NCBI GenBank assembly: GCA_016190215.1
Contig: JACPRA010000020.1
Location: 12,868-76,867, forward strand
Source: Candidatus Omnitrophota bacterium
GTDB lineage: Bacteria; Omnitrophota; Gorgyraeia; Aquiviventales; Aquiviventaceae
Length of the DNA stretch: 64,000 nucleotides
Reading direction: 5' to 3'
Part shown: positions 4,192-43,148 of the stretch, in pieces
Layout of the letters: every line of letters begins with the position of its first letter
How positions within the stretch are numbered: the first letter of the stretch is position 1
The notes under the pieces: generated by a model
The model's input: the letters and a program-made list of their open reading frames with translations, nothing else
Told to the model about the DNA's origin: nothing
The model's database searches: none
Made by a program: the position numbers and the translations under genes

Positions 4192-5736
4192 ATGTTCTGG
4201 CGGCAGTTCGAGACAACGCGGACGCGACACCAGCGCCGGTCTTCCGAGCGCGGGGCCGTCTTCCTGCTGCAGAGCTATCTCACGGTGTTTTGGTTCGTCG
4301 TCCTGACCACCGCCATGCTCACCCGCAGCTCCATGGAGCTGCGCCACTCGCAAGTGGCCCTGGAGGAGCACCAGGCGTTCTGGCAGGCGGAGGCCGGTCT
4401 GGACGAAACCCTCTACGGCATCAAAACCAATCCGCCCGCGCTGGCCGCCAATGAATGCACGGAGCCGACGGACCAGCTGCTGTCGCTGTCGGTGGGAGAG
4501 GGCTACGCGTACACGTACCAGGTGTGCCTGAACGAAAACGGGCAATACAGCGTGATCTCCACCGGCGAAGGCAACACCTCGGCGATCGAAGAACTCAGCA
4601 CCACGGTGGCCATTCCGAACGACAACCTGCGCTTCCGGCAGGCGGTGTTGGCCATTGACCAGATGGTCACGCGCCAGGCGACGTTCGGGGCCGTCAGTTC
4701 GGTGCTCACGACGCTGGGCGGAGGCACCACGCTGGTGTTGCCGTCCACTACTACTCTGAACCGGCAGGCCCATCTGGTGGCGCTCGCCAAGAACCCCGAC
4801 GGCGCAGCCGTCAAGCTCTCTGAGCGTTCCTACGTCAAAGGGAACGTGGTCATCCCGCCGGGGCTCACGTCAACCTCAGGATTGGTCATTGAAGAAGACA
4901 GCTCCCTCACCAATGAACAGGGGACCAGCGAGGCCAGCGTCTTGGAGGACCGGATCGTCTTGCCGGAACCCGTGGCCGTGCCGAGCGATGCAGTCAATCT
5001 TGGCGCGCTGGAACTGAAGGGCACCACCCGGTGCCTTGAGCCCGGCACGTACAAAACCACCAGCCTGGTCATGAGCAAAGAGGGCGGCGTGGAGCCGGTG
5101 CTCTGCACGAAAGGCGCGGTGAATCTCTACGTCACCGGCACCGTCACGCAGTCGTCCGGACGCCTGTACGGCCAGCCGGACACGACGAGCAGCACGCCGA
5201 TGAACCGGTACTCCCCCAAGCACCTGCGGATCTTCGTCACGGGAGAGCAGGAAGTGAAGTTCGGCGCCAGCATCACTGCCGCCGTGGTGTACGCGCCCCG
5301 CGCCCACGTGATCATCGGCAAGAAGCAGGTCTTCATGGGATCGGTCATCGCCAAGAAGGCGTCCATCGGCGGAACCGGCGAAGGCAACCGGACCTATTTC
5401 CTCTACGACCAGGCGCTGGCGAACGAGCGGTTCTCGGTGAACACCGGAACCCGCCAGGTGACCGTGCAGGCCCAGCAGGCCGTGCCCCAGGCCAGCGTCT
5501 CGCACTTCGCCGCCGGCACGGTGCCCTTCCGGGTCATTGACGGGTTTGATCCTTCCCACAGGATTGTCGCGCCGCCGGCGGGCGGAGGGCACAGCTTCAG
5601 CGCCCAATCCGCGACCCCCACGACCGCACCGAAAACGGAGTTGTCCGCCGCGGAGAAGCTCGCCGCCTACCTGAAAGAGTTGCTCAAGAAGGCTGCCGCG
5701 GCGATCAGCGCCTACCTGCGGGATCACGACGATTGA
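4192..5736 (+). CDS. PilX N-terminal domain protein (putative type IV pilus/pseudopilus minor component)
   Basis: The N-terminal anchor VFLLQSYLTVFWFVVLTTAMLTRSSMELRHSQVALEEHQAFWQAEAGLDE matches the PilX_N pattern (TM helix followed by QAfxaAEAGl). There is a GGAGGG RBS 8 nt before the ATG at 4192; an alternative ATG lies at 4162. Confidence 0.5.
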   Translation: MFWRQFETTRTRHQRRSSERGAVFLLQSYLTVFWFVVLTTAMLTRSSMELRHSQVALEEHQAFWQAEAGLDETLYGIKTNPPALAANECTEPTDQLLSLSVGEGYAYTYQVCLNENGQYSVISTGEGNTSAIEELSTTVAIPNDNLRFRQAVLAIDQMVTRQATFGAVSSVLTTLGGGTTLVLPSTTTLNRQAHLVALAKNPDGAAVKLSERSYVKGNVVIPPGLTSTSGLVIEEDSSLTNEQGTSEASVLEDRIVLPEPVAVPSDAVNLGALELKGTTRCLEPGTYKTTSLVMSKEGGVEPVLCTKGAVNLYVTGTVTQSSGRLYGQPDTTSSTPMNRYSPKHLRIFVTGEQEVKFGASITAAVVYAPRAHVIIGKKQVFMGSVIAKKASIGGTGEGNRTYFLYDQALANERFSVNTGTRQVTVQAQQAVPQASVSHFAAGTVPFRVIDGFDPSHRIVAPPAGGGHSFSAQSATPTTAPKTELSAAEKLAAYLKELLKKAAAAISAYLRDHDD

Positions 5737-5814
5737 TAGAGCGTCGGCGGCGTAGCCGACCCGCGTTCGCGGCATTCTTGTTCCCGGCCTTCCCGTCCCT
5801 GCTATAATACCCGC

Positions 5815-6768
5815 ATGTCCATTCAGAAGGTCTTGCTGGCCAAACCGCGCGGATTCTGCGCCGGCGTAGACCGGGCCATTGAGACGGTGGAGCTCGCGCT
5901 CTTGCGCTTGCCCGGGCCGGTCTACGTCCGCCGGGAGATCGTGCATAACCCGCACGTCGTCAACGCGCTGCGGGAAAAGGGCACGAAGTTCGTCGAGGAG
6001 GTCGAGGAGATTCCGGAGGGCGCCACGGCGATCTTCAGCGCCCACGGCATCTCGCCCGCCGTCCGGGAGGCGGCTGCTACCCGACGCCTCCAGGTCATTG
6101 ACGCCACCTGCCCCCTGGTCACCAAAGTGCACGTCGAGGCCACGCGCTATGCCCAAGCCGGGTACACGATCCTGCTGGTCGGGCATGCGGGGCACGACGA
6201 GGTGATCGGCACCACGGGGGAAGCCCCGGAGGCCATCCGGCTGGTCCAGACCGTGGAGGAAGCGGAGCAGGTCGCGGTGGCCGATCCGGACAAAGTGGCC
6301 GTGATCACCCAGACCACCTTGAGCCTCGATGACACCGCCGCCATCATCGCCGTGTTGAAGCGGCGCTTCCCGGCGCTGCTCGCGCCGGCCAAGCAGGACA
6401 TCTGCTATGCCACGCAGAACCGGCAGAACGCCGTCAAAGCGATCGCGGCGGAAGCTGAGGTCATCCTTGTGATCGGGGCGAAGAACAGCTCCAACTCCAT
6501 CCGCCTGACCGAAGTCGCCGAAGACGCCGGGCGCCGGGCGCACCTGATCAACCACGCGTCGGAAATTGACCCCCGGTGGCTGGAGGGAGCGCGCTGCATC
6601 GGCGTGACCTCCGGCGCGTCGGCGCCTGAGCACCTCGTGCAGGAAGTGGTCGAGCGGCTCAAGAGCTTGGGGGCATCTCAAGTCGAAGAGTGGGAGCTGG
6701 TGCGCGAGGACGTCAACTTCGGCCTGCCGAGCGAGCTGACCTCCTCCATCGCGAAAACCCGCGTGTAA
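5815..6768 (+). CDS. ispH: 4-hydroxy-3-methylbut-2-enyl diphosphate reductase
   Basis: MSIQKVLLAKPRGFCAGVDRAIE is a typical IspH/LytB N-terminus. The protein is 317 aa. Confidence 0.9.
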   Translation: MSIQKVLLAKPRGFCAGVDRAIETVELALLRLPGPVYVRREIVHNPHVVNALREKGTKFVEEVEEIPEGATAIFSAHGISPAVREAAATRRLQVIDATCPLVTKVHVEATRYAQAGYTILLVGHAGHDEVIGTTGEAPEAIRLVQTVEEAEQVAVADPDKVAVITQTTLSLDDTAAIIAVLKRRFPALLAPAKQDICYATQNRQNAVKAIAAEAEVILVIGAKNSSNSIRLTEVAEDAGRRAHLINHASEIDPRWLEGARCIGVTSGASAPEHLVQEVVERLKSLGASQVEEWELVREDVNFGLPSELTSSIAKTRV

Positions 6769-6781
6769 CTCCGCCCGCCCC

Positions 6782-7195
6782 GTGAAACACCTCACCGAGT
6801 ACTTGTGGTTCCACACTAAGACCCGCCGCGACCTGGTCAATATCACCGACCGGATCGGCGAGCTTGTGGCCGACAGCGGCGTGCAGGAGGGGTTCTGCCT
6901 CGTCTCGGCGATGCACATCACCGCCGGCATCTGGGTCAACGATGACGAGGACGGCTTGTGGAAGGATTTATGGGAGCTGCTGGACCGGCTGGTCCCGGTG
7001 GAGCGGGCCTACCAGCACCACCTCACCGGGGAAGACAACGGCGACGCCCACCTGAAGCGCACGCTGGTGCATCATCAGGCCATCCTCCCGATCACCAAGG
7101 GCAAGCTGGACTTGGGCCCGTGGGAGCAGGTCTTCTATGCCGAGTTCGACGGCCGCCGCAAGAAGCGCGTGGTAGTCAAGATCCTCGGTGAGTGA
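6782..7195 (+). CDS. yjbQ: YjbQ/UPF0047 family secondary thiamine-phosphate synthase-like enzyme
   Basis: 137 aa. The conserved LVSAMHITAGIWVNDDEDGLWKDL ... HHLTGEDNGDAHLKRTL matches YjbQ. Confidence 0.75.
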   Translation: MKHLTEYLWFHTKTRRDLVNITDRIGELVADSGVQEGFCLVSAMHITAGIWVNDDEDGLWKDLWELLDRLVPVERAYQHHLTGEDNGDAHLKRTLVHHQAILPITKGKLDLGPWEQVFYAEFDGRRKKRVVVKILGE

Positions 7196-7310
7196 ACTTG
7201 ATTATGGATGCCTGACGAAAGATGATGCTGGATGACTGATGATAGGTGATGGATGTCGTTCGCCCTTCATCAATCATCCATCATCAGGCATCAATCATCT
7301 CTCCTCAGAA
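7196..7310. repeat. Palindromic element of about 100 bp, family 3 (GATGATGGATG), copy 1
   Basis: The arms gatgcctgacga...gatgatag and catcaatcatccatcatcaggcatc form a long stem. It is about 93% identical to the copy at 18858-18975. It sits between the convergent genes yjbQ and the C45 peptidase. Confidence 0.85.
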
Positions 7311-8508
7311 GTTCCTCTACGTTAAGGCGGTGGTACGGGGTCTGAGCCGCCCGCGTCATTCCCTGCGCATTGGCGACCCACATGTCGGGCCACGCAAACA
7401 CCACGCTTTGCATATTGGAGCCGGGGGCCACCGCCTGCGCGATTTGCATCGCGCCCTGGGCGTCGAGACGGCCGTAGTGGGCCATGAGGCCGGCGGCTTG
7501 GCCGAGATAGCGCACCTCATACGCGGAGCCGGACGGCGGCTCCAGCCCCGGGCGCTTGGGGTCCCCGCCGGAGGCGATCTGCCTGGCGCGGATGCCGGGG
7601 TCCATCGCCGTATCCGCGCGCAGCACGGCATCCGGCACCGGGCGGGCGTAGGAGACTCCGGCTTCCTTCGGGTCGTCCGCCTGGAAGACCACCGCCTGCC
7701 GGTGCGTGGTTTCGACCGCCACCGCCCGCGGCGGCTCGGCCTGCGCGATCACGTAGTTGACGCCGACGGTGCGGGGCGCCGTCCGGATGATCTCCACCGC
7801 TTGGTCCAGCGCGGAGGCGTCTTCCAACACGCGGCGCATCAGGAACACCATGGGGATCCCGCGGGCGGAGATGTCGTCGGTTTCCGCGCCCACCTGCCCG
7901 ATCGAGATCGCCTGGTCATTGATGCCGGTGAGGACGCCGATAAACCCGGCCCACCCCGCATTCACAAACGCGCGGCGGCCCGACGGCTTCACCACGAACA
8001 CCGCCGCAAACTGCTGGAGGCCCACCTCGATGTTCCAATCCAGGTTCCGGCTATGCACCAGCCGTCCCGATGAGGTGGCGCGCCCCCAGGCCGCCACGTT
8101 CGCGCAGGAATACGTGCGGTCTGGAATCGCGTGCAGGCGGGCCAGCTCGCGCAGCGGCACGCCGGACCCCTGCGCCAACCCCCGCAGTTCTTCGCGGTAG
8201 GCCTCCGGCAGAAAATCCCATCCCTGCGCCCAGGCACGGTCCAGCCACCAGTCCGCCGCCCAGCGGTTGACCAGCGGCACCTTCAGGTAGCGCCGGAAGT
8301 AGCTCAGCACCTGCGCCACACACTGCCGCACCTCCTCGCGCAGCAGCTCCCCATGCTGCCGTCCCAGCTCGTACGGTGAGCCCTCCAGAAAAACGATGGG
8401 AAGTTCTTCCTGATATTCGACGTGCGCCGCCTCCGCCGTGACAAGTGACAAGTTACAAGTGACAAGAATCATGACCAACCACACTCGCCAGGTTCGCATT
8501 TCTTTCAC
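7291..8508 (-). CDS. C45-family peptidase (acyl-CoA:6-APA acyltransferase-like), secreted
   Basis: Has the autoproteolytic YSCANVAAWG motif region. The signal peptide MILVTCNLSLVTAEA is encoded by the GTGACAAG repeat arm. An AGGTGA RBS precedes the start. Confidence 0.5.
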   Translation of the reverse strand: MKEMRTWRVWLVMILVTCNLSLVTAEAAHVEYQEELPIVFLEGSPYELGRQHGELLREEVRQCVAQVLSYFRRYLKVPLVNRWAADWWLDRAWAQGWDFLPEAYREELRGLAQGSGVPLRELARLHAIPDRTYSCANVAAWGRATSSGRLVHSRNLDWNIEVGLQQFAAVFVVKPSGRRAFVNAGWAGFIGVLTGINDQAISIGQVGAETDDISARGIPMVFLMRRVLEDASALDQAVEIIRTAPRTVGVNYVIAQAEPPRAVAVETTHRQAVVFQADDPKEAGVSYARPVPDAVLRADTAMDPGIRARQIASGGDPKRPGLEPPSGSAYEVRYLGQAAGLMAHYGRLDAQGAMQIAQAVAPGSNMQSVVFAWPDMWVANAQGMTRAAQTPYHRLNVEELLRRDD

Positions 8509-11730: not shown

Positions 11731-12228
11731 CGGCGGCAGCGCCCACAATCCACGCCGCTCGGCCCGCGCCTGCTTCGCCAGTTCGCGGAATTCCTCAGCG
11801 TGCTTCACGTTCGGAGGGATCGTCAGCAGGTGCGCGTAGCCCTCTTCCACGAGCTGCGCGTTGATCAAGCGCCCGTCCACGTATACATACGCCAGCAGCC
11901 GCCCATAGCGGTCGTGCGGCTCCACGTCGTATTCCAAGCGCACGGTATGGCCTTCCACGAGCCGCCGGTTGGCCTCGGAGGCTTCCCGGCCGAACGGTTC
12001 TGGGTCCTCCACCCAGCGATCCCCTGCTCGCCGGCGCGTCTCCGGCGTATCAATGCCGATATAGCGCACGAGACGCCCGTCCGTCAGCTCAATGGTATCG
12101 CCGTCAATGACGCGGCGTACGCGGGCGTCCGTCGGGAGCGGGGCCGCGCAGCTTGCAAGGGGAAGGACAAGGCTGAGAAGGACGGCGGCGCACCACCGGC
12201 CGGCCGATCGGCGCACGGTGCGGATCAC
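11719..12228 (-). CDS. Thermonuclease (SNase-like) lipoprotein
   Basis: VIDGDTIEL...YIGIDTPE ... YGRLLAYVYVDGRLINAQLVEEGYA matches the staphylococcal nuclease family. Has a lipobox LASC. Confidence 0.75.
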   Translation of the reverse strand: MIRTVRRSAGRWCAAVLLSLVLPLASCAAPLPTDARVRRVIDGDTIELTDGRLVRYIGIDTPETRRRAGDRWVEDPEPFGREASEANRRLVEGHTVRLEYDVEPHDRYGRLLAYVYVDGRLINAQLVEEGYAHLLTIPPNVKHAEEFRELAKQARAERRGLWALPPSRR

Positions 12229-12539
12229 TTCTTGAGGGATTTGCCGACTTTCGCTTCCAGCGACGCGACTTTTGAGGTGATACGACCCGACCCGGGCTGA
12301 TCGCGCCGGTCGTCCACGCGGATGGTCGTCATGACGCGCTGGGCGTTTTTCAGCATCGCCTCATGGCACTGCTTGGCCAGCTTCATCACATCGTCCCAGC
12401 TGCCTTCGACCACGGTGCCCATCGGGCCGACCCGGTAGTCGAGCCCGCTGGCGTCAATCAGCTTGGCCACCTGCGCCAGCGCCGGGCTCACGCTGGCGCT
12501 TCCCGTACCCAGCGGCACAATTTCCAGCTCAGCCAGCAT
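12225..12539 (-). CDS. MTH1187/YkoF-family small protein
   Basis: 104 aa. EIVPLGTGSASVSPALAQVAKLIDASGLDYRVGPMGTVVEG fits the DUF77 pattern. It has a 4-nt overlap with the thermonuclease start. Confidence 0.6.
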   Translation of the reverse strand: MLAELEIVPLGTGSASVSPALAQVAKLIDASGLDYRVGPMGTVVEGSWDDVMKLAKQCHEAMLKNAQRVMTTIRVDDRRDQPGSGRITSKVASLEAKVGKSLKK

Positions 12540-12575: not shown

Positions 12576-13979
12576 TTAACGACAATCAACAGTGGCCCAA
12601 CCCGTCCGATACTCGAGCAGCCAGCTATTTCCAGACGAGGGGCATGGTGAGGTGCAGCTCGTTCCTCCCGTCGCAATAATCGTGGAGCTTCCACTGTAAC
12701 AGCTCGGGCCGGTATATGCATGACAGACTCTCCATCCACCCCCGGCACCGCACGATGGAACGGTGGATGAGGTAAATCCGCCGGTACCCCCCGGCACCGT
12801 CCCCCTGTAACACGGTCCAGTAGGCCACACACCCAACACCTCCTCAGAAGATGTTGTGGTGTAGCTGTCGAGGCAGGTCCACTCCGGATTGCGCGTCTCC
12901 TCCCCGTCACAATTATAGTCGTAGCTTCCGCTGCTTCTCGGCGAGGAGAAAAACGCGTTCTGTTCAGGATGGACATTGTTGTTCCCATCATCGCAGTCCG
13001 AAGGAGTCGTCCTGCTGGTTCGATAGCCGCCGAGGCTCTCACAAGAGATGCCCCGACACACCGTCACTACCCCAGCGAGCGTCCAAACGTCGTTGTCGCT
13101 ATCCGGATAGCACGCGAGCAGCTGCCATTGGCTTCCGTCCGTTGGCGCGCAGTCAGTGCCATCATGGCTCGCAGTCCACCCGGTCGCCGGAGCTGGCTCT
13201 CCACAGACTTGGGTGGCCACGGCGTCAGGGGTGGTATGACCATCATTGTCCGGATCGGGATAGCGGGTATACAGCGCGTATTTGGTCGGATCGCCGTCAT
13301 CGCAGTCATCAGGACTCGAGCGGGTTGTCTTCCATCCGGCTGGGAGAAACGGATCCCCTTGAATCGTCTGCAACTCACCAATGGTATGCCCATCCCCATC
13401 ACTATCACGGTAGGCTTGATACGTTTGGCCTCCAGGGGGGTCCGCACACGCGACAGAGACTGGAAGCAACGTCCCATCAGTCTTGATATAGAGGTTATGA
13501 CAGGTCGGGTTGCCGACCGGACTGTCCACGTCAACCAGTCGCAAGCCGGTGCCGCGAACCGGCAGAAAGACGTCTCCCGCCACCGCCAACGGCGCTCCCG
13601 GCTGCGTGGTTCCGATCCCGACCCGGCCCTCCATGGTCACCAGCAGCCCGGCGGGTTTGCACTCCTGGTCGTCCAGCGCGCGATCCGCATTCTCGTCATA
13701 CCAGGCGGTCCCGCTCGGACAGGGGCCGGTCGTCCCGCCGACCATTGTGGGGTTGGTGGCCGGGGAGCCGGCGACCACCAGCCGATGCAAAATCGGTTGA
13801 TTGTCCGAATCGGTAGGCCGCTGGCCGCCGATGGCCAGCGTTTCGGTAGCACGCAGCTCCTGATAGACCCCGCGCGGGGAGGGGTAGTAGGTCGTGAGGG
13901 TGAGGTCTTCGGCGAGGGCGTAGGCCAGGGTGCCCACGCTAACCAGCACGACCAACCAGTTCCCGATTCTCGTTCGCAT
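12576..13979 (-). CDS. Secreted Cys/Asp-rich protein with shared N-terminal module (paralogue A)
   Basis: Has a signal peptide then EDLTLTTYYPSPRGVYQELR. The body carries repeated DSDGDGHT / DPDNDGHT / DCDDGDP / DCDDGNN motifs and is Cys-rich. 467 aa. Confidence 0.8.
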   Translation of the reverse strand: MRTRIGNWLVVLVSVGTLAYALAEDLTLTTYYPSPRGVYQELRATETLAIGGQRPTDSDNQPILHRLVVAGSPATNPTMVGGTTGPCPSGTAWYDENADRALDDQECKPAGLLVTMEGRVGIGTTQPGAPLAVAGDVFLPVRGTGLRLVDVDSPVGNPTCHNLYIKTDGTLLPVSVACADPPGGQTYQAYRDSDGDGHTIGELQTIQGDPFLPAGWKTTRSSPDDCDDGDPTKYALYTRYPDPDNDGHTTPDAVATQVCGEPAPATGWTASHDGTDCAPTDGSQWQLLACYPDSDNDVWTLAGVVTVCRGISCESLGGYRTSRTTPSDCDDGNNNVHPEQNAFFSSPRSSGSYDYNCDGEETRNPEWTCLDSYTTTSSEEVLGVWPTGPCYRGTVPGGTGGFTSSTVPSCGAGGGWRVCHAYTGPSCYSGSSTIIATGGTSCTSPCPSSGNSWLLEYRTGWATVDCR

Positions 13980-38084: not shown

Positions 38085-38154
38085 TGGGGAGCCAGGGCTC
38101 GAACCTGGACGTAGGGCTTCAAAGGCCCTTGTGCTACCGTTACACTACTCCCCA
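38085..38154 (-). tRNA. tRNA-Gln (anticodon UUG)
   Basis: Manual fold of the reverse complement TGGGGAGTAGTGTAACGGTAGCACAAGGGCCTTTGAAGCCCTACGTCCAGGTTCGAGCCCTGGCTCCCCA. It has a 7-bp acceptor stem, anticodon loop CTTTGAA (TTG) and T-loop TTCGAGC. CCA is not encoded. Confidence 0.85.
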
Positions 38155-39041
38155 CCGCAGCGCTCCGTGCGTACCACATGAATGGTCCAGGTGGGCGAAC
38201 CTTTGGCGCGAAGGCTGTCGGCGATCGTGCGGGCATGCGACTCATCGCGACAGAGACCGAAAACGGTTGGTCCGCTCCCTGACATCAGCACCACAGGACA
38301 TCCCGCCTCGTGAAGGCGGGACAGGATCGTCGCAATGAGAGGACAACGCCGGATCGCCACAGGCGTCAAATCATTGACCAATCCCTGAGCGAGCTCGCTG
38401 AGCGAGCCGTTGGACAAGGCGTGTGCAAGTATTTTAAGCGATCCCTCCGGCACTGTCAAGGCGGCCCCCGCCTGCGCGCAGTCCCAGTCGTCAAAGATGT
38501 CCTTCGTGGAGAGGGCCGTCGGCAGGGCCACCAGCACGTGCCACAGCGTCGGGACTCCGCGCAGCGGCTCGCACCGCTCGCCTCGGCCCCGTCCCACGGC
38601 CACGGCGGCCTCCTCGAGGAAAAAGGGCACGTCGCTGCCCAGTTGGGCCGCCAAAGGCTTGAGGCGCGCTCGCGACCACGACAACCCCCACAGATCGTTC
38701 AAGCCCAGCAGCGTCGTGGCGGCGTCTGAGGAGCCCCCGCCCAACCCGCCGGCCACCGGAATGCGCTTGGTCAAGCGGATCGCCGCCCCGGTTGAGACGC
38801 CGGCCGTCTGCTGCAACAGCTTGGCCGCCTTCAAGATCAGGTTATCCGGTCCAACGCTTAAGGTGGGATGATCCGTCGTCAGCGTCACAGTGGAATCGGG
38901 CCACGGCTCGAACGTCAGCTCGTCGGCGAGGTCAATGCGCTCAAACACCGTCTCCAACTCGTGATAGCCGTCAGGACGGCGTCCCACGATGCGCAGGTAG
39001 AGATTCAGCTTGGCAGGTGCTCTCAATTGAACCGGGGGCAT
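38145..39041 (-). CDS. ispE: 4-diphosphocytidyl-2-C-methyl-D-erythritol kinase
   Basis: APAKLNLYLRIVGRRPDGYHEL is the IspE N-terminus. The ATG directly follows the paralogue C stop (TAAATG). Confidence 0.85.
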   Translation of the reverse strand: MPPVQLRAPAKLNLYLRIVGRRPDGYHELETVFERIDLADELTFEPWPDSTVTLTTDHPTLSVGPDNLILKAAKLLQQTAGVSTGAAIRLTKRIPVAGGLGGGSSDAATTLLGLNDLWGLSWSRARLKPLAAQLGSDVPFFLEEAAVAVGRGRGERCEPLRGVPTLWHVLVALPTALSTKDIFDDWDCAQAGAALTVPEGSLKILAHALSNGSLSELAQGLVNDLTPVAIRRCPLIATILSRLHEAGCPVVLMSGSGPTVFGLCRDESHARTIADSLRAKGSPTWTIHVVRTERCGGE

Positions 39042-40223
39042 TTACCACGAGATCACAACCTTGCCTTTGGCGCCAGTGCCCCCGTCCGGGCCACCTCCCG
39101 CTCCCCCGCCACCAGGCGCGGCCCCCACCGCAGCCGTCGTGGCTCCGCCGGATCCGCCATTGCCGCCATCGCCGCCTCGACCGCCGGAGCCGGCCACTGG
39201 CGTATCGCCCTGGGCTCCTGCTTGGCCTGAAATCGCCAAGGTCAGCGTACTACTCCCTCCCTGGCCGGCCCCTGAGCAGGTGGTACTGCACCCGTTTTTC
39301 CCTCCACCACCACCGGTCGCGTTATACGAGATCCCTTGTCCGGAAAATGTGCTCGAGCCGCCGGTGCACCCGTACCCGCCACATGCCGCTCCGCCTGCTC
39401 CGCCCGCTCCAACCACCACCGTATATGAGGCTCCGGAGATGACCGGCACAATCCCCTTGCCGTATCCTCCGCCTCCTCCCCCGGCGCCTGGCGTCCAACA
39501 ACACACGGCATTCCCGCCTCCGCCGCCCGCCCCCCACATCTCCAGCACAATCTGGGGCACATCCGCCGGAGCGATAAACGTATAGGTGCCTGCCGTGTCA
39601 TACGGTTGTATCCCATGCGGGAGGGCCCCGCCGGCGGATTTCCAACTCGTCCCATCATAGACTTCCAGTTGGTTCGAGTCCGTGTTATAGATGACCATCC
39701 CCTCCACCGGAGAGGTCACCGCGCTCGGGAGCAGCCGGGGCGGAAGGAAGCCGGAATTGGTCGAACGAATGTCCAGGGCGGCGGTCGGATTCGTCGTCCC
39801 AATGCCGACCTGGCCGTTGAGGAAAATGAGTGTGCTCGTGTCGCTGGTCCCGACGCGTAACGTATTGCCCTGCACCCGCAGCGCGTACCCTCCCGGATCG
39901 GTCGTCCCGATGGCGACATTGCCGTTACTATCGATCAAGAAGGGGCTCGTATCCCCGCTCGGAGCATCATCAATACGAAGGGTCGTTGTTCCGCCGCCGC
40001 CGACCACATACACGGCAGGATTGTTCAGATCGCCGATGACCTGCAATCGCGCGGCGGGCGAACTCGTCGTGCCGATCGCCACATCTCCGCTGGTGCGCAG
40101 CTCCTTATAGACGCCGCGGGGCGAGGGGTAGTACGTCGTGAGGGTCAAGTCTTCGGCGAGGGCGTAGGCGAGGGTGCCAAGAAGGATAACCAGAACCCAC
40201 CAGCCGCGGAGGCGTGAAGTCAT
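39042..40223 (-). CDS. Secreted Gly-rich protein with shared N-terminal module (paralogue C)
   Basis: The start MTSRLRGWWVLVILLGTLAYALAEDLTLTTYYPSPRGVYKELR is chosen by alignment to the other three paralogues. The body has the motif LPPRLLPSAVTSPVEGMVIYNTDSNQLEVYDGTSWK, then a Gly-rich domain (LEMWGAGGGGG ...), and ends GKVVISW. Confidence 0.75.
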   Translation of the reverse strand: MTSRLRGWWVLVILLGTLAYALAEDLTLTTYYPSPRGVYKELRTSGDVAIGTTSSPAARLQVIGDLNNPAVYVVGGGGTTTLRIDDAPSGDTSPFLIDSNGNVAIGTTDPGGYALRVQGNTLRVGTSDTSTLIFLNGQVGIGTTNPTAALDIRSTNSGFLPPRLLPSAVTSPVEGMVIYNTDSNQLEVYDGTSWKSAGGALPHGIQPYDTAGTYTFIAPADVPQIVLEMWGAGGGGGNAVCCWTPGAGGGGGGYGKGIVPVISGASYTVVVGAGGAGGAACGGYGCTGGSSTFSGQGISYNATGGGGGKNGCSTTCSGAGQGGSSTLTLAISGQAGAQGDTPVAGSGGRGGDGGNGGSGGATTAAVGAAPGGGGAGGGPDGGTGAKGKVVISW

Positions 40224-40230
40224 TGCGTGT

Positions 40231-40533
40231 TTATACCCACCCGAGTTTGCGCAGCCGAGGGATGGCGTCCAAATAGACCTGTGCGTCTCGACGCATGCCG
40301 ACTTTGACAACGAGCACGATCAGACGTTGGCGCTCGATCCGGTAAATCACGCGGTAGTCCTCAACCCGCAGCCGCCGATATCCCGCCAAGACGCCTCCCA
40401 ACGGTTTGCCGAACTCGGTCGGGGCCGCGGTCAATTTCTTCCGGAGGGCCTTGGTGATCTGCAGGCGAGCCTGCGGATCGAGCCGAGCCAAATCCTCTGT
40501 CCAGACGAGTGGATGAATCTCAACCTGCCACAT
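40231..40533 (-). CDS. relE: Type II toxin RelE/ParE family
   Basis: 100 aa. GYRRLRVEDYRVIYRIERQRLIVLVVKVGMRRD is the RelE/ParE core. It follows the Phd gene. Confidence 0.75.
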   Translation of the reverse strand: MWQVEIHPLVWTEDLARLDPQARLQITKALRKKLTAAPTEFGKPLGGVLAGYRRLRVEDYRVIYRIERQRLIVLVVKVGMRRDAQVYLDAIPRLRKLGWV

Positions 40534-40539
40534 CCAGGG

Positions 40540-40830
40540 TTAGGAATGCCGCAGGCCCACTCGCCGTTCCAGCTCTTCCAAGCTCAGGTAGGATTTCACC
40601 GGATGGCGCTGCTCGCGTTCTTTCGCCAACAACCCCAGCAGGTACTCTTCCAGCGCATCCAAGGTGGCTTCCGTGCGCTCATATCGCTGGATGGGCACCA
40701 ACACCGCAATCGGCCGATGGTGTTTTTCGAGAATGACGGATTCCCTCTGCGCCACTTTCACAATTTCCTCCGCGTGGGTGCGCAACTCCGAGATCCCCAC
40801 GAGCGTCGTATCCCCTTTAATCTGCCGCAT
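40540..40830 (-). CDS. Type II antitoxin Phd/YefM family
   Basis: 96 aa. ISELRTHAEEIVKVAQRESVILEKHHRPIAVLVPIQRYE is the Phd/YefM pattern. It lies 7 nt upstream of relE. Confidence 0.75.
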   Translation of the reverse strand: MRQIKGDTTLVGISELRTHAEEIVKVAQRESVILEKHHRPIAVLVPIQRYERTEATLDALEEYLLGLLAKEREQRHPVKSYLSLEELERRVGLRHS

Positions 40831-40913
40831 CGTCCCTCCTGTTCCTCACCAGCACAAGCCTATCATATGACTATTTAATTGTCAAATTAATTGTCAATCG
40901 TATTCTCTCTCGC

Positions 40914-42158
40914 TCACCACGTGATCGCGACTCGGCCCGGGGCGCCATCCCCACCATCATATCCACTCACCACCGATGGATGCGCACCGCCACCACCTCC
41001 CCCACCGCCGGGAGCGTCGCCATTCGCCCCTGCATTCTGAGGCGCTCCCCCGCGACCACCGGTACCACCGTTGCCACCACTTCCGCCACTACCGCCTTTG
41101 GGAGGAATGTTTTGAGAAATGCACGCAGCATTTTCTCCCCACTGACCGGAGACACTCATGTATTCACTACTCCCGCCACCACGACCGCCATAGATCACAC
41201 CGCTCTCCGTGCTGCCTCCGGTCGCTAAGACCGTGCCGAATGCTTGGCTCGCAACAGTACTCGAGCCTCCAGCCGTCGCAGCCCACTCACCCTGAGCGAT
41301 GCCGCCCTGCCCTCCTGCCCCGACGGTGACGGTGATCGGATAGGAGGCTACGTCGGGCGTCACAGCCACCACCCGCTTTCCATATCCTCCTCCCCCGCCC
41401 CCTCCACCACCACAGGCTACCAACACCCCACCACTCATATACGAGTTCGCGTAGCTTCCACCCGCCCCCGCACCCCATGCTTCTATCTGGATGCTGGATA
41501 CATCTGGCGGAATCAGAAACGTGTTAGAACCGGGGCTAGTAAAGACTTCCATCCCGTGCGCCGATGGCGGCGGAGGTGGGGGCGGCGGAGTGCCGCCGCA
41601 TGGCCAGACCACGCTGCCACAGGCTTCCAGCTGATTCGTGTCGGTGTTGTAGACCACCAACCCCTCGGCTGGAGTGAGAATTGCATCCCGCTGGCTCGTC
41701 GTCATCCGGGGAGGCAACAATCCTTGAGTGACGGACGAGATTTCGACGGCCGCGGAAGCAGTGGGACTCGTTGTTCCGATCCCCACCTGCCCTGCCGTAG
41801 TCACGAGCAGGCCGGGGGGCCTGCACTCCTGGTTATCGAGGGAGAGGTCCGCGTCCTCGTCATACCAGGCGGTCCCGGCGGGGCAGGGGCCGGTCACACC
41901 CCCCACCTCTGTCGGGTTTGTCGCCGGGGCACCGGCCACGACCAACCGGTGCGGAATCAGCTGGGCTGAGGTGTCGGTGGGGCGCTGGCCGCCAATGGCG
42001 ACCATCTCGGTGGCGCGCAGGTCCGTCGTGCGCAGCGACTGATAGACCCCCCGCGGCGAGGGGTAGTACGTCGTGAGGGTCAAGTCTTCGGCGAAGGCGT
42101 AGGCGAGGGTGCCCACCAACAGAACAGCCACGATCCAACCGTTCAGGCGCGGAGACAC
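40914..42158 (-). CDS. Secreted Gly-rich protein with shared N-terminal module (paralogue D)
   Basis: Has a signal peptide then AEDLTLTTYYPSPRGVYQSLR. The first third resembles paralogue A (GPCPAGTAWYDEDAD). It then has LPPRMTTSQRDAILTPAEGLVVYNTDTNQLE, a P8 stretch, a Gly-rich domain, and ends GRVAITW. Confidence 0.8.
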   Translation of the reverse strand: MSPRLNGWIVAVLLVGTLAYAFAEDLTLTTYYPSPRGVYQSLRTTDLRATEMVAIGGQRPTDTSAQLIPHRLVVAGAPATNPTEVGGVTGPCPAGTAWYDEDADLSLDNQECRPPGLLVTTAGQVGIGTTSPTASAAVEISSVTQGLLPPRMTTSQRDAILTPAEGLVVYNTDTNQLEACGSVVWPCGGTPPPPPPPPSAHGMEVFTSPGSNTFLIPPDVSSIQIEAWGAGAGGSYANSYMSGGVLVACGGGGGGGGGYGKRVVAVTPDVASYPITVTVGAGGQGGIAQGEWAATAGGSSTVASQAFGTVLATGGSTESGVIYGGRGGGSSEYMSVSGQWGENAACISQNIPPKGGSGGSGGNGGTGGRGGAPQNAGANGDAPGGGGGGGGAHPSVVSGYDGGDGAPGRVAITW

Positions 42159-42188: not shown

Positions 42189-43148
42189 TTACGTTTTGGA
42201 GCTGCACGCATGCGATTTCGCGCGCAGCAGGTCTTTTGCGGCCGTGACCAGATCGTCGGGCATGAGATGGAACGCTTTCAGCAGCTCGGCCGGATCGCCG
42301 GAGGTGCCGAAGCGGTCCATGACGCCGACCATCCGCATCGGCACCGGGTGTTGCTGCGCCACCACCTCCGCGACGGCGCCGCCCAACCCGCCCAGGATTG
42401 TGTGCTCTTCGGCAGTAACAATCGCCCCAGTCTCGCGGGCGGCGGAGAGGATGGCGGCCTGGTCAATCGGCTTGATGGTGTGCAGGTTCAATACGCGCGC
42501 CTCGACACCCTCGCGCGCCAACTGCGCGGCGGCCTCCAGGGCGTGGGAGACGAGGACGCCGCACGCGATAAAGGTGAGGTCCTGCCCGGCGCGAAGCTGG
42601 TTGGCCTTGCCGATGATGAAGGGGTCCTCGGGCTTGGTCAGCTCCGGCACCGGGTTGCGGCCCAGGCGCAGATAGACCGGACCCGGATAGGCCGCGGCCG
42701 CGATGGTGGCTTTCTTGGCTTCTAATGCATCGCACGGGGAGATCACCGTCATGAACGGCAGGCAGCGCAGATGGGCGAACTCTTCCAGGGCTTCCGCGGT
42801 GGCGCCATCTGCCCCGACGGAGAGCCCGCCGTGCGAGCCGGCCATCTTGACGTTGAGCCGCTGGTAGCAGACCGCCATGCGCATCTGCTCCAGCCCCTTG
42901 CCGACGAGAAACTGGGAGAAGGAGCAAGCGAAGGGCAGCTTGCCCGCCATCGCCAAGCCGGCGGCGGTGCCCACGAGGTCTTGCTCCGCGATGCCGACCG
43001 AGAAGAAGCGGTCCGGAAACTGCTGCTTGAACCAGATGGCGCGGGCGGAATCTTCCAAGTCGCCGGAGAGGGCGACCACGTTGGGGTTGGTCTTCCCCAG
43101 CTCCACCAAGCCTTCGCCAAATCCGTCGCGCGTGGGTTTATTTGCCAT
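42189..43148 (-). CDS. tkt: Transketolase, C-terminal subunit (split transketolase)
   Basis: Has the pyrimidine-binding and C-terminal domains (FFSVGIAEQDLVGTAAGLAMAGKLPF). Confidence 0.8.
   Translation of the reverse strand: MANKPTRDGFGEGLVELGKTNPNVVALSGDLEDSARAIWFKQQFPDRFFSVGIAEQDLVGTAAGLAMAGKLPFACSFSQFLVGKGLEQMRMAVCYQRLNVKMAGSHGGLSVGADGATAEALEEFAHLRCLPFMTVISPCDALEAKKATIAAAAYPGPVYLRLGRNPVPELTKPEDPFIIGKANQLRAGQDLTFIACGVLVSHALEAAAQLAREGVEARVLNLHTIKPIDQAAILSAARETGAIVTAEEHTILGGLGGAVAEVVAQQHPVPMRMVGVMDRFGTSGDPAELLKAFHLMPDDLVTAAKDLLRAKSHACSSKT

Follow-up and report, generated by a model that had tools for sequence, protein, structure and literature searches.

A family of exported, phage-tail-fibre-like proteins in Omnitrophota, with two members at the tkt-ispE junction and relatives in type IV pilus-like loci

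Results

Gene content of the locus

We confirmed that four minus-strand genes fill positions 39042-42158 of a 64,000-nucleotide stretch of a Candidatus Omnitrophica metagenome-assembled genome (MAG; contig JACPRA010000020.1, positions 12,868 to 76,867, assembly GCA_016190215.1), called the window below. Two of them encode predicted exported fibre-like proteins, the subject of this work, which are named paralogue D (42158-40914, 414 amino acids (aa), called from the open reading frame (ORF), Gly_rich_2 and PHROG 863) and paralogue C (40223-39042, 393 aa). Between them lie a Phd/YefM-family antitoxin gene (40830-40540, 96 aa; PF02604, TIGR01552) and a RelE/ParE-family toxin gene (40533-40231, 100 aa; PF05016, TIGR02385). 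Two further window paralogues are named A and B, loci of relatives or metagenomes carry L-numbers and recorded homologues P-numbers. C matches P0001 (= HYY15_02230) at 100%; the mechanical ORF list begins it at TTG 40310, which is too long, while ATG 40223 gives the deposited HYY15_02230 of 393 aa. D starts with a GTG behind GAGAGGG. A first reading of the letters made without database searches (the sequence-only reading) had placed the stop of C immediately before the ispE ATG and a RelE/Phd pair between C and D. Both are as described: the C stop TAA (39044-39042) and the ispE ATG (39041-39039) form TAAATG at 39039-39044 on the minus strand, and both proteins of the pair pass the Pfam and NCBIfam cut-offs.

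Domain order of C and D

C and D have one domain order in common, namely signal peptide, N-terminal peptide, stalk, neck and glycine-rich head; all positions below are on the minus strand. In D, the signal peptide (residues 1-21, 42096-42158) has a basic n-region, a hydrophobic core and an A-x-A end (AYA) at which it would be cleaved. The family-defining N-terminal peptide FAEDLTLTTYYPSPRGVYQSLR (42030-42095) is followed by a stalk of the type found in A (residues 44-145, 41724-42029), with a CPxGTxWYDE...EC module and one GQVGIGTT repeat, by the neck GLLPPRMTTSQRDAILTPAEGLVVYNTDTNQLEACGSVVWPCGG (41592-41723, 49% identical to that of C), by a linker of eight prolines (41565-41588) and by a head of about 30% glycine (40917-41564, 52% identical to that of C). 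In C, the signal peptide (residues 1-21) and the N-terminal peptide LAEDLTLTTYYPSPRGVYKELR (residues 22-43) occupy 40095-40223, and the stalk (39753-40094) contains three G-x-V-(A/G)-I-G-T-T repeats at residues 46, 101 and 137, modelled as short strands. The C neck GFLPPRLLPSAVTSPVEGMVIYNTDSNQLEVYDGTSWKSAGG (39627-39752) is assigned to PF26696 in a precomputed annotation and has three short strands in the model, and the head (39045-39626), TNF-like plus glycine-rich, is 34% glycine. Residues 22-43 read (L/F)AEDLTLTTYYPSPRGVY..LR and are invariant in all four window paralogues. A class III prepilin signal was considered for this N-terminus and rejected, since a G/FTLxE motif is lacking and the hydrophobic part stands before the conserved Glu and not after the cleavage site.

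The neck consensus is G(F/L)LPPR...EG..(I/V)YNTD.NQLE, extended in C by ..Y.G..W. The LPPR...YNTD...NQLE pattern that had been proposed for both proteins fits D exactly and fits C only with an indel, the spacer from LPPR to EG being 3 residues shorter there. The peptides GLLPPRMTTSQRDAILTPAEGLVVYNTDTNQLE and WPCGGTPPPPPPPPSAHG are present in D, and GFLPPRLLPSAVTSPVEGMVIYNTDSNQLEVYDGTSW in C. Other details noted from the letters were confirmed: GGGGGGYGK occurs within long glycine-rich stretches of both proteins, the Pro8 linker was read in D and is lacking in C, and both proteins terminate in G(K/R)V(V/A)I(S/T)W, with GKVVISW closing C and GRVAITW closing D. The heads have 189-212 residues and are 30-34% glycine. 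When the two heads were aligned, glycine columns were 74% identical and the other columns 39%, with indels falling between the glycine motifs. A weak DUF2793 match was also found at C residues 171-196.

Fold of the head and likeness to phage tail fibres

Both heads match Gly_rich_2 (PF21722) well above its gathering cut-off of 24.3 bits, C with 45.5 bits (E 1.2e-11) over residues 210-393 and D with 46.6 bits (E 5.7e-12) over residues 207-414. Against PHROG, the tail family phrog_863 was matched by C (E 6e-18) and D (E 2.6e-19), along with several 'minor tail protein' and 'tail fiber protein' families. The YNTD neck motif probably falls in Pfam PTL_trimer (PF26696), going by the precomputed annotation, which lists P0001 (= C) and C/D-like proteins including the D-like P0014; D itself is not tabulated in it.

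The AlphaFold monomer of C (numbered with one extra leading residue) had a predicted local distance difference test (pLDDT) score above 85 over residues 160-394. Foldseek with this model retrieved the mycobacteriophage Bxb1 tail-tip protein (9d93_Qa/Qb, E 4e-8) and the cyanophage Pam3 fibre gp24 (7ypx_A, E 7e-8, 26% identity; also 7yfw_a). The 7ypx_A superposition had probability 1.0, TM (target) 0.58 and a root-mean-square deviation of 4.1 over 222 columns. The next matches were the TNF-like plus glycine-rich domains found in ALK/LTK. Among predicted viral structures (BFVD), 242 match the C model at E<=1e-3, including uncultured-phage glycine-rich-domain proteins, mycobacteriophage minor tail proteins, a Xanthomonas phage tail fibre and syn9 Gp38. 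The heads of C and D are thus predicted to have the fold found on Pam3 and Bxb1 tail fibres and tail tips. The stalk strands of the C monomer model have pLDDT 51-85, a low confidence that is compatible with an obligate oligomer and is no demonstration of one.

At the sequence level, Synechococcus phage proteins match the C neck with 67.6% identity over a stretch of about 32 residues. A PDB sequence search with C found no relative, only a chance myosin match at E 0.5, and in a tblastn search of the head against 50,697 phage genomes, in which the BLAST low-complexity filter probably masks the glycine-rich part, the neck motif alone was matched, in unannotated Synechococcus phage genes only. The proteins had been called tail-fibre-like from their letters, with a fold comparison proposed as the check. 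Such a fold was found, by Foldseek of the C model (7ypx_A, 9d93_Qa) and by PHROG on the C-terminal 230 residues; because the profile matches and the fold agree, and with the 242 viral structures and the Synechococcus neck matches beside them, the term is supported.

A family defined by its N-terminal peptide

The peptide that follows the signal sequence defines a family. Its consensus (A/Q)E(D/E)xTxTTYYPSPxGxY is nearly invariant, and T30, Y31, Y32, P33, P35, G37 and Y39 were invariant in 44 diverse members. A profile of these 44 N-termini was scored against 1.84 billion cluster representatives and matched 1,475 clusters at E<=1e-10 and 5,760 at E<=1e-3, a tier that may include generic signal peptides; in each of the 150 matches listed, the start fell no further than about 40 residues from the N-terminus. 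With the first 160 residues of C, 146 proteins were retrieved, of which all organism-named ones are from Omnitrophica/Omnitrophota, and homologues of 35-60% identity occur in many assemblies. The peptide was not confirmed in any of the 2.9 million viral contigs of IMG/VR, and a literature search for the N-terminal motif and the Pfam names PTL_trimer/Gly_rich_2 returned no paper.

Behind the common N-terminus, the C-terminal ends differ. In a Pfam scan of 107 members, nine carried Peptidase_S74, seven Gly_rich_2, one Gp53-like_C, one a dockerin and one a lone RecT match, the others being without a tip domain; a C1q tip is also present in the family. C-terminal tips are thus swapped between members. 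Two members of locus L106 (2536-3756 and 3812-4966) end in a YNTD-like motif (...GRMIVQMTGTTKLWVCRGASGW..., ...GLMIFDTTNNKLYICHSNGTW...), so that the neck motif of C and D doubles as a terminal module. A different end, DGRF.V......NPSQ.FYWE.KAVRAD..PL.VE..K, is shared by members in the pilus loci L098 (12075-14030), L138 (6331-8418) and L161 (11099-12895), which belong to diverged lineages, and is possibly a further conserved tip or chaperone-like module.

Paralogues and mosaicism

At least 12 paralogues are present in this MAG (HYY15 locus tags together with A, B and D). Paralogue A (13979-12576, minus strand, 467 aa) has the same signal and N-terminal peptide, a D-like stalk and a Cys-rich tip (20 Cys), and paralogue B (15408-14131, minus strand, 425 aa) has the same N-terminal peptide and a Cys-rich tip with a sub-threshold MopE-like motif; the two contain 20-21 cysteines and DxDxDG-type repeats. 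The stalks of D and A are 73% identical, those of D and C can be aligned over 23 residues only, and the D neck and head are 49-52% identical to their C counterparts. D is thus a mosaic, with a stalk of the A type and a head of the C type, and stalks and tips have been shuffled among the paralogues. At the DNA level, an 83-86-nt box at the 5' end (nt 46-131 of the genes; C 40093-40178, D 42028-42113, A 13849-13934) is 90-92% identical between A, C and D, the remainder being beyond blastn detection. The box encodes the TTYYPSPRGVY peptide together with the last part of the signal peptide, and could be a substrate for recombination or gene conversion.

Directly upstream of B and A on the minus strand are genes for a Ste24-like M48 peptidase (17323-16100) and a PEMT/ICMT-like methyltransferase (16103-15405), whose stop overlaps the B start by 4 nt. 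CAAX processing of A or B by this pair was considered and rejected, neither protein ending in a CAAX box.

Insertion into the tkt-ispE operon

Loci of 20 kb around ispE were taken from species-representative genomes and the window proteins were mapped onto them. The order TPR-tktN-tktC-ispE-glmU-prs-ctc is kept in eight Omnitrophota relatives, where the gap between tktC and ispE is about 100 nt or less in seven and about 580 nt in the eighth (L008, 9419-10001). In the closest relative (L006; IspE 78% and TktC 94% identical) the spacer from the tktC stop to the start of ispE is 20 nt. The family motif is absent from all fetched 20 kb loci, so that no member lies within 10 kb of ispE there. In the window, this junction carries the 3.1 kb block D-Phd-RelE-C, and its GC content at third codon positions is 0.67 for D, 0.70 for C and 0.72-0.73 for the toxin-antitoxin (TA) genes, against 0.78-0.86 for the flanking genes. 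Since tktC abuts ispE in the relatives, the block is a lineage-specific insertion. The closest relative has members elsewhere, three as a tandem array with aroC and aroK on either side and one that lies between ompA and the H+-pyrophosphatase gene; the position at ispE is therefore not inherited. An accessory insertion directly upstream of the ispE operon had been suggested from the letters, with synteny in relatives as the check, and the eight relatives, which lack these genes at ispE, bear it out. Direct repeats or att-like sites flanking the 3.1 kb were not found, only paralogous 5' boxes and glycine-codon repeats, and terminator searches between D, C and ispE gave chance-level matches only.

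The insertion is bounded upstream by tktC (42189-43148, minus strand, Pfam), the transketolase C-terminal subunit gene that abuts ispE in relatives, and a TPR gene and the split transketolase (tktN, tktC) lie upstream of D. Its downstream edge is ispE (38145-39041, minus strand, GHMP kinase domains; 78% identical orthologue in L006), followed by tRNA-Gln (38154-38084, minus strand) and, by homology to the syntenic genes of relatives, glmU, prs and ctc/rplY; the downstream order that the sequence-only reading had given stands for these five genes. Within ispE, a sigma-70-like match TTGACA-17-TAAAAT (11/12; 38431-38459, minus strand) lies about 280 nt upstream of tRNA-Gln and is possibly the tRNA promoter.

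Extra DNA in this operon was also seen in other Omnitrophota, about 2.7 kb between tktN and tktC in L015 (6149-8870) and, separating the TPR gene from tktN, about 2.5 kb in L011, L014 and L016 (about 5717-8264); the family motif was not found in the extra DNA of L015, L011, L014, L016 or L008. The three tandem C/D-like genes of the closest relative lie behind aroC in the aro operon (L003, 5413-6303), and a prepilin peptidase gene (Peptidase_A24) lies one gene upstream in the same operon.

Family members in type IV pilus-like operons

A metagenome scan with the N-terminal peptide gave 563 confirmed stretches, and 79 loci were retained; neighbour genes were clustered in the 19 loci of at least 8 kb together with the window and two relatives. 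A conserved pilus neighbourhood was found in eight loci (L093, L098, L106, L129, L138, L139, L147 and L161). By Pfam, three to five N_methyl pilin-like genes with G|FTLxE sites come first, then one to four family genes, then a PilM-PilN fusion, followed by PilO, a PilP-sized protein, a secretin, a T2SSE ATPase with MshEN, a T2SSF platform protein and another pilin. Among the eight loci, identity is 32-47% for PilMN, 24-37% for the last pilin and 50-62% for the secretin (PilQ); the loci are so strongly diverged that the arrangement has been conserved and one organism has not been sampled repeatedly. In L093 there is a 10-nt overlap between the last pilin gene and the fibre gene, and in L138, L147 and L161 the two are no more than about 15 nt apart. 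The minor-pilin gene of this operon stands directly upstream in 21 of the 43 loci with at least 900 nt of upstream sequence, and pilMN downstream in 7 of the 14 with enough sequence. The same gene order occurs in a named Omnitrophica genome (GCA_016196405.1). PilY1-type domains were found in no protein scanned at the fibre position, nor in C, D or 11 pilus-locus members.

The toxin-antitoxin module

The Phd-RelE pair appears to be an ordinary module, of which only the place between two fibre paralogues is notable. The toxin scores 41.6 bits against a cut-off of 23 for PF05016 (E 1.9e-10) and 31.1 against 27.9 for TIGR02385 (E 2.5e-7), and the antitoxin 38.7 against 29.8 for PF02604 (E 8.5e-10) and 32.1 against 20.8 for TIGR01552 (E 5e-8). 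As in type II TA modules of the RelE/ParE-Phd/YefM kind, the antitoxin gene comes first, with the toxin gene 6 nt downstream, and an AT-rich promoter with a tandem repeat lies upstream: the spacer between D and the antitoxin gene (83 nt, 41% GC) contains a sigma-70-like promoter TTGACA-16-AATAGT (10/12; 40870-40897, minus strand) with tandem TTGACAATTAA boxes. The two boxes overlap the promoter (within 40870-40913) and look like a TA operator.

Among the members inspected, TA modules lie within about 2 kb of five, the window pair included: Phd with a 98-aa partner beside P0021 (L168 11714-12257), an 82-aa protein with a PIN toxin beside HYY15_04495 (L169 1993-2642), RHH with ParE beside P0008 (L171 12859-13315), and, in the pilus operon of L093, a PIN gene next to the fibre gene (11951-12352). 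When the TA proteins of these modules were searched by tblastn over the 64 kb window, the pair between D and C was their sole match.

Discussion

C and D are best seen as dispersed copies within a large and undescribed family of Omnitrophota, whose proteins resemble phage tail fibres and are predicted to be exported. That they are exported modular proteins of phage-fibre type, brought in as an accessory insertion, we regard as very probable. Their head shares its TNF-like plus glycine-rich build with Pam3 gp24 (7YPX/7YFW) and the Bxb1 tail-tip protein (9D93 Qa/Qb), which Foldseek aligns to the C model with probability 1.0 at 26-29% identity over about 220-234 columns. The alternation of conserved glycine motifs and variable segments between C and D is also seen in gp24 and in the phage S16 gp38 adhesin, and gp24 is a trimer that needs a dedicated chaperone (PMC9608196). 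Unlike the Pam3 and Bxb1 fibres, C and D are chromosomal, carry Sec signal peptides and have tkt, ispE and TA genes as neighbours; they have a lineage-specific N-terminal peptide and no baseplate-docking helix, a GxVGIGTT stalk, and no adjacent gp25-like chaperone gene. With no phage context and a cellular export signal, C and D therefore do not class as phage fibres. A more distant likeness was found to the TG domain of ALK/LTK, which together with Gly_rich_2 (PF21722) and Gly_rich (PF12810) has the same polyglycine-lattice fold (Foldseek E 1e-3 to 1e-2, probability 0.93-0.99); identity is 14-18% and TM about 0.2-0.26, and these are eukaryotic receptor kinases with another role.

Taken as a whole, the data are best explained, with a slight lean in its favour, by fibre-like family proteins that are exported and docked on a type IV pilus-like machine as adhesins. 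Gene order suggests that they may be exchangeable adhesin fibres displayed with such a machine. PilY1 and minor pilins make up the pilus tip and priming complex (PMC7541494), and PilC/PilY1 attaches to a PilK-family pilin through a short beta-strand at its terminus (PMC12918778). At the level of the family, and not of C and D, the place after the minor-pilin genes and before or near pilMNOPQ is that of PilY1/PilC, which also has a Sec-type signal peptide and a short conserved peptide at one end that may dock by adding a strand (PMC12918778). In contrast to PilY1/PilC, the family has no beta-propeller, its conserved end is N-terminal, its head is of the phage-fibre type, and it has many paralogues, half of them dispersed. 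C and D do not lie beside pilus genes, so that for them the pilus link rests on shared family membership.

Under this adhesin reading, Sec would carry C and D across the inner membrane and the signal peptide would be cleaved after AYA, and the freed N-terminal peptide would dock the fibre on the type IV pilus-like machine, at the tip or at another part of it. The likeliest docking would be as a strand on the minor-pilin tip complex, in the manner in which PilC/PilY1 use their terminal strand; this pilus-tip mechanism in particular we put forward tentatively. The stalk would trimerise, and variable loops of the glycine-rich head would bind a surface ligand on a partner or prey cell, with C and D as alternative heads of different specificity. 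The inserted block would share a transcription unit with the essential ispE, and the TA pair would be an addiction module in its own right, which either landed or travelled together with the fibre genes.

Several points weigh against docking on a pilus. C and D are away from pilus genes, and no pilin-like gene lies in the 64 kb window. Of the family loci sampled, roughly half lie outside pilus operons, and the pilus-locus fraction comes from the 80 loci nearest to the query, which makes it a biased sample. The searches made in this MAG (a secretin search with no HYY15 protein in the best 120 matches, and exact look-ups of P0025, P0007 and P0063, which were unmatched) showed no family member in a pilus operon of its own. 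The conserved terminus is N-terminal in the family and C-terminal in PilY1. Trimerisation, signal-peptide cleavage and surface exposure are all predictions from sequence. In both AlphaFold runs, including one with the 107-member family alignment, the N-terminal peptide and stalk came out without a confident fold (pLDDT 41-85), and among the immediate neighbours of C and D (the antitoxin gene after D, ispE after C) there is no gp25-like chaperone candidate. Finally, synteny alone cannot separate a tip adhesin, a cargo of a type II secretion-like machine and a co-regulated independent fibre.

The strongest alternative, in our view unlikely, is that these are surface fibres independent of pili, like the mosaic adhesive trimers (MATs) of Bdellovibrio bacteriovorus: the peptide would bind the outer membrane, lipopolysaccharide or S-layer, and synteny would reflect co-regulated attachment functions. 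MAT fibres likewise form a multigene family in which a signal peptide and a conserved N-terminus precede a repeat stalk and the tips are swapped (PMC10769870), and on some tips only, in both groups, there is a Peptidase_S74 chaperone domain, with non-S74 tips on the others. Half of the family loci, those of A-D among them, lie away from pilus genes, and the anchoring of MATs is itself unsettled. Against such fibres, lineages with PilMN only 32-47% identical still have the fibre gene between minor pilins and pilM, and it overlaps or closely trails the last pilin gene, which is tighter than co-regulation usually demands. The conserved element also differs, since MATs have a beta-rich N-terminal domain of about 130 aa that is folded, and here it is a short peptide of about 20 residues without a predicted fold. 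MAT fibres exceed 1,000 aa (PMC10769870), compared with 393 aa for C and 414 aa for D, and MATs are unreported inside pilus operons. By analogy, the family would work like MAT fibres and sits like PilY1, a likeness from which membership of either family does not follow.

Less probable still is that the proteins are cargo of a type II secretion-like machine, in which a pseudopilus would push folded fibres through the secretin, to be released or rebound at the surface, and the peptide would be an export or retention tag. The NCBI label of the operon secretin is GspD, the ATPase has an MshEN domain and the pilO product weakly matches T2SSM_b, all of which would suit such a machine, whereas the JGI label of the same secretins is PilQ, and the models matched are PilM_2, PilN and PilO and not GspC, GspL or GspK. 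Cargo of type II secretion systems is Sec-dependent and is sometimes encoded beside the machine; its substrates are not known to share a linear N-terminal signal.

It is very improbable that C and D are prophage or tailocin remnants, that is, ordinary phage tail-fibre genes left in the chromosome. The head fold, the PHROG matches to phage tail proteins, the low third-position GC and the TA module alongside fit such an origin. However, the flanking genes are of the housekeeping kind and no further phage gene is among them, C and D both carry signal peptides, and family copies are spread, alone or in tandem, through housekeeping operons; the peptide went unconfirmed in IMG/VR, yet it occurs in more than 1,400 clusters, the named members of which are all cellular Omnitrophota. 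Spurious ORFs could be expected in a window of 66% GC, rich in glycine codons and with long ORFs in many frames, but homologues at 35-60% identity, family hidden Markov model matches, a confident fold and a conserved domain order leave this explanation practically no room.

If the pilus-docked adhesin reading is carried further, Omnitrophota pili would bear interchangeable trimeric fibre heads, plugged on the minor-pilin tip through TTYYPSPxGxY as a universal strand; this picture is speculative and rather doubtful. Should it be true, the dozen paralogues (C, D, A and B among them) would be a repertoire of receptor specificities on one retractile filament, a cellular counterpart of the swapping of receptor-binding proteins in phages, for catching hosts or prey, and the 86-nt 5' box would be a recombination handle for exchanging stalks and tips. 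The insertion shows that fibre genes and TA modules can enter essential operons without breaking them.

Omnitrophota, which are uncultured and mostly ultra-small, are suspected to live on other cells. In the main genomics paper on them, type IVa pili and giant ORFs are named as attachment candidates, and the terms minor pilin and PilY1 are not used (PMC10066038). For annotation, a name and a domain map are gained for thousands of 'hypothetical proteins'. In joining a lineage-specific candidate docking peptide with phage-type receptor-binding heads, the family is a testable candidate for partner recognition, and if this is true it would be a second independent case, after the Bdellovibrio MAT, of phage fibre modules in bacterial cell-cell recognition. 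The family of C and D may thus help these tiny bacteria to grip other cells.

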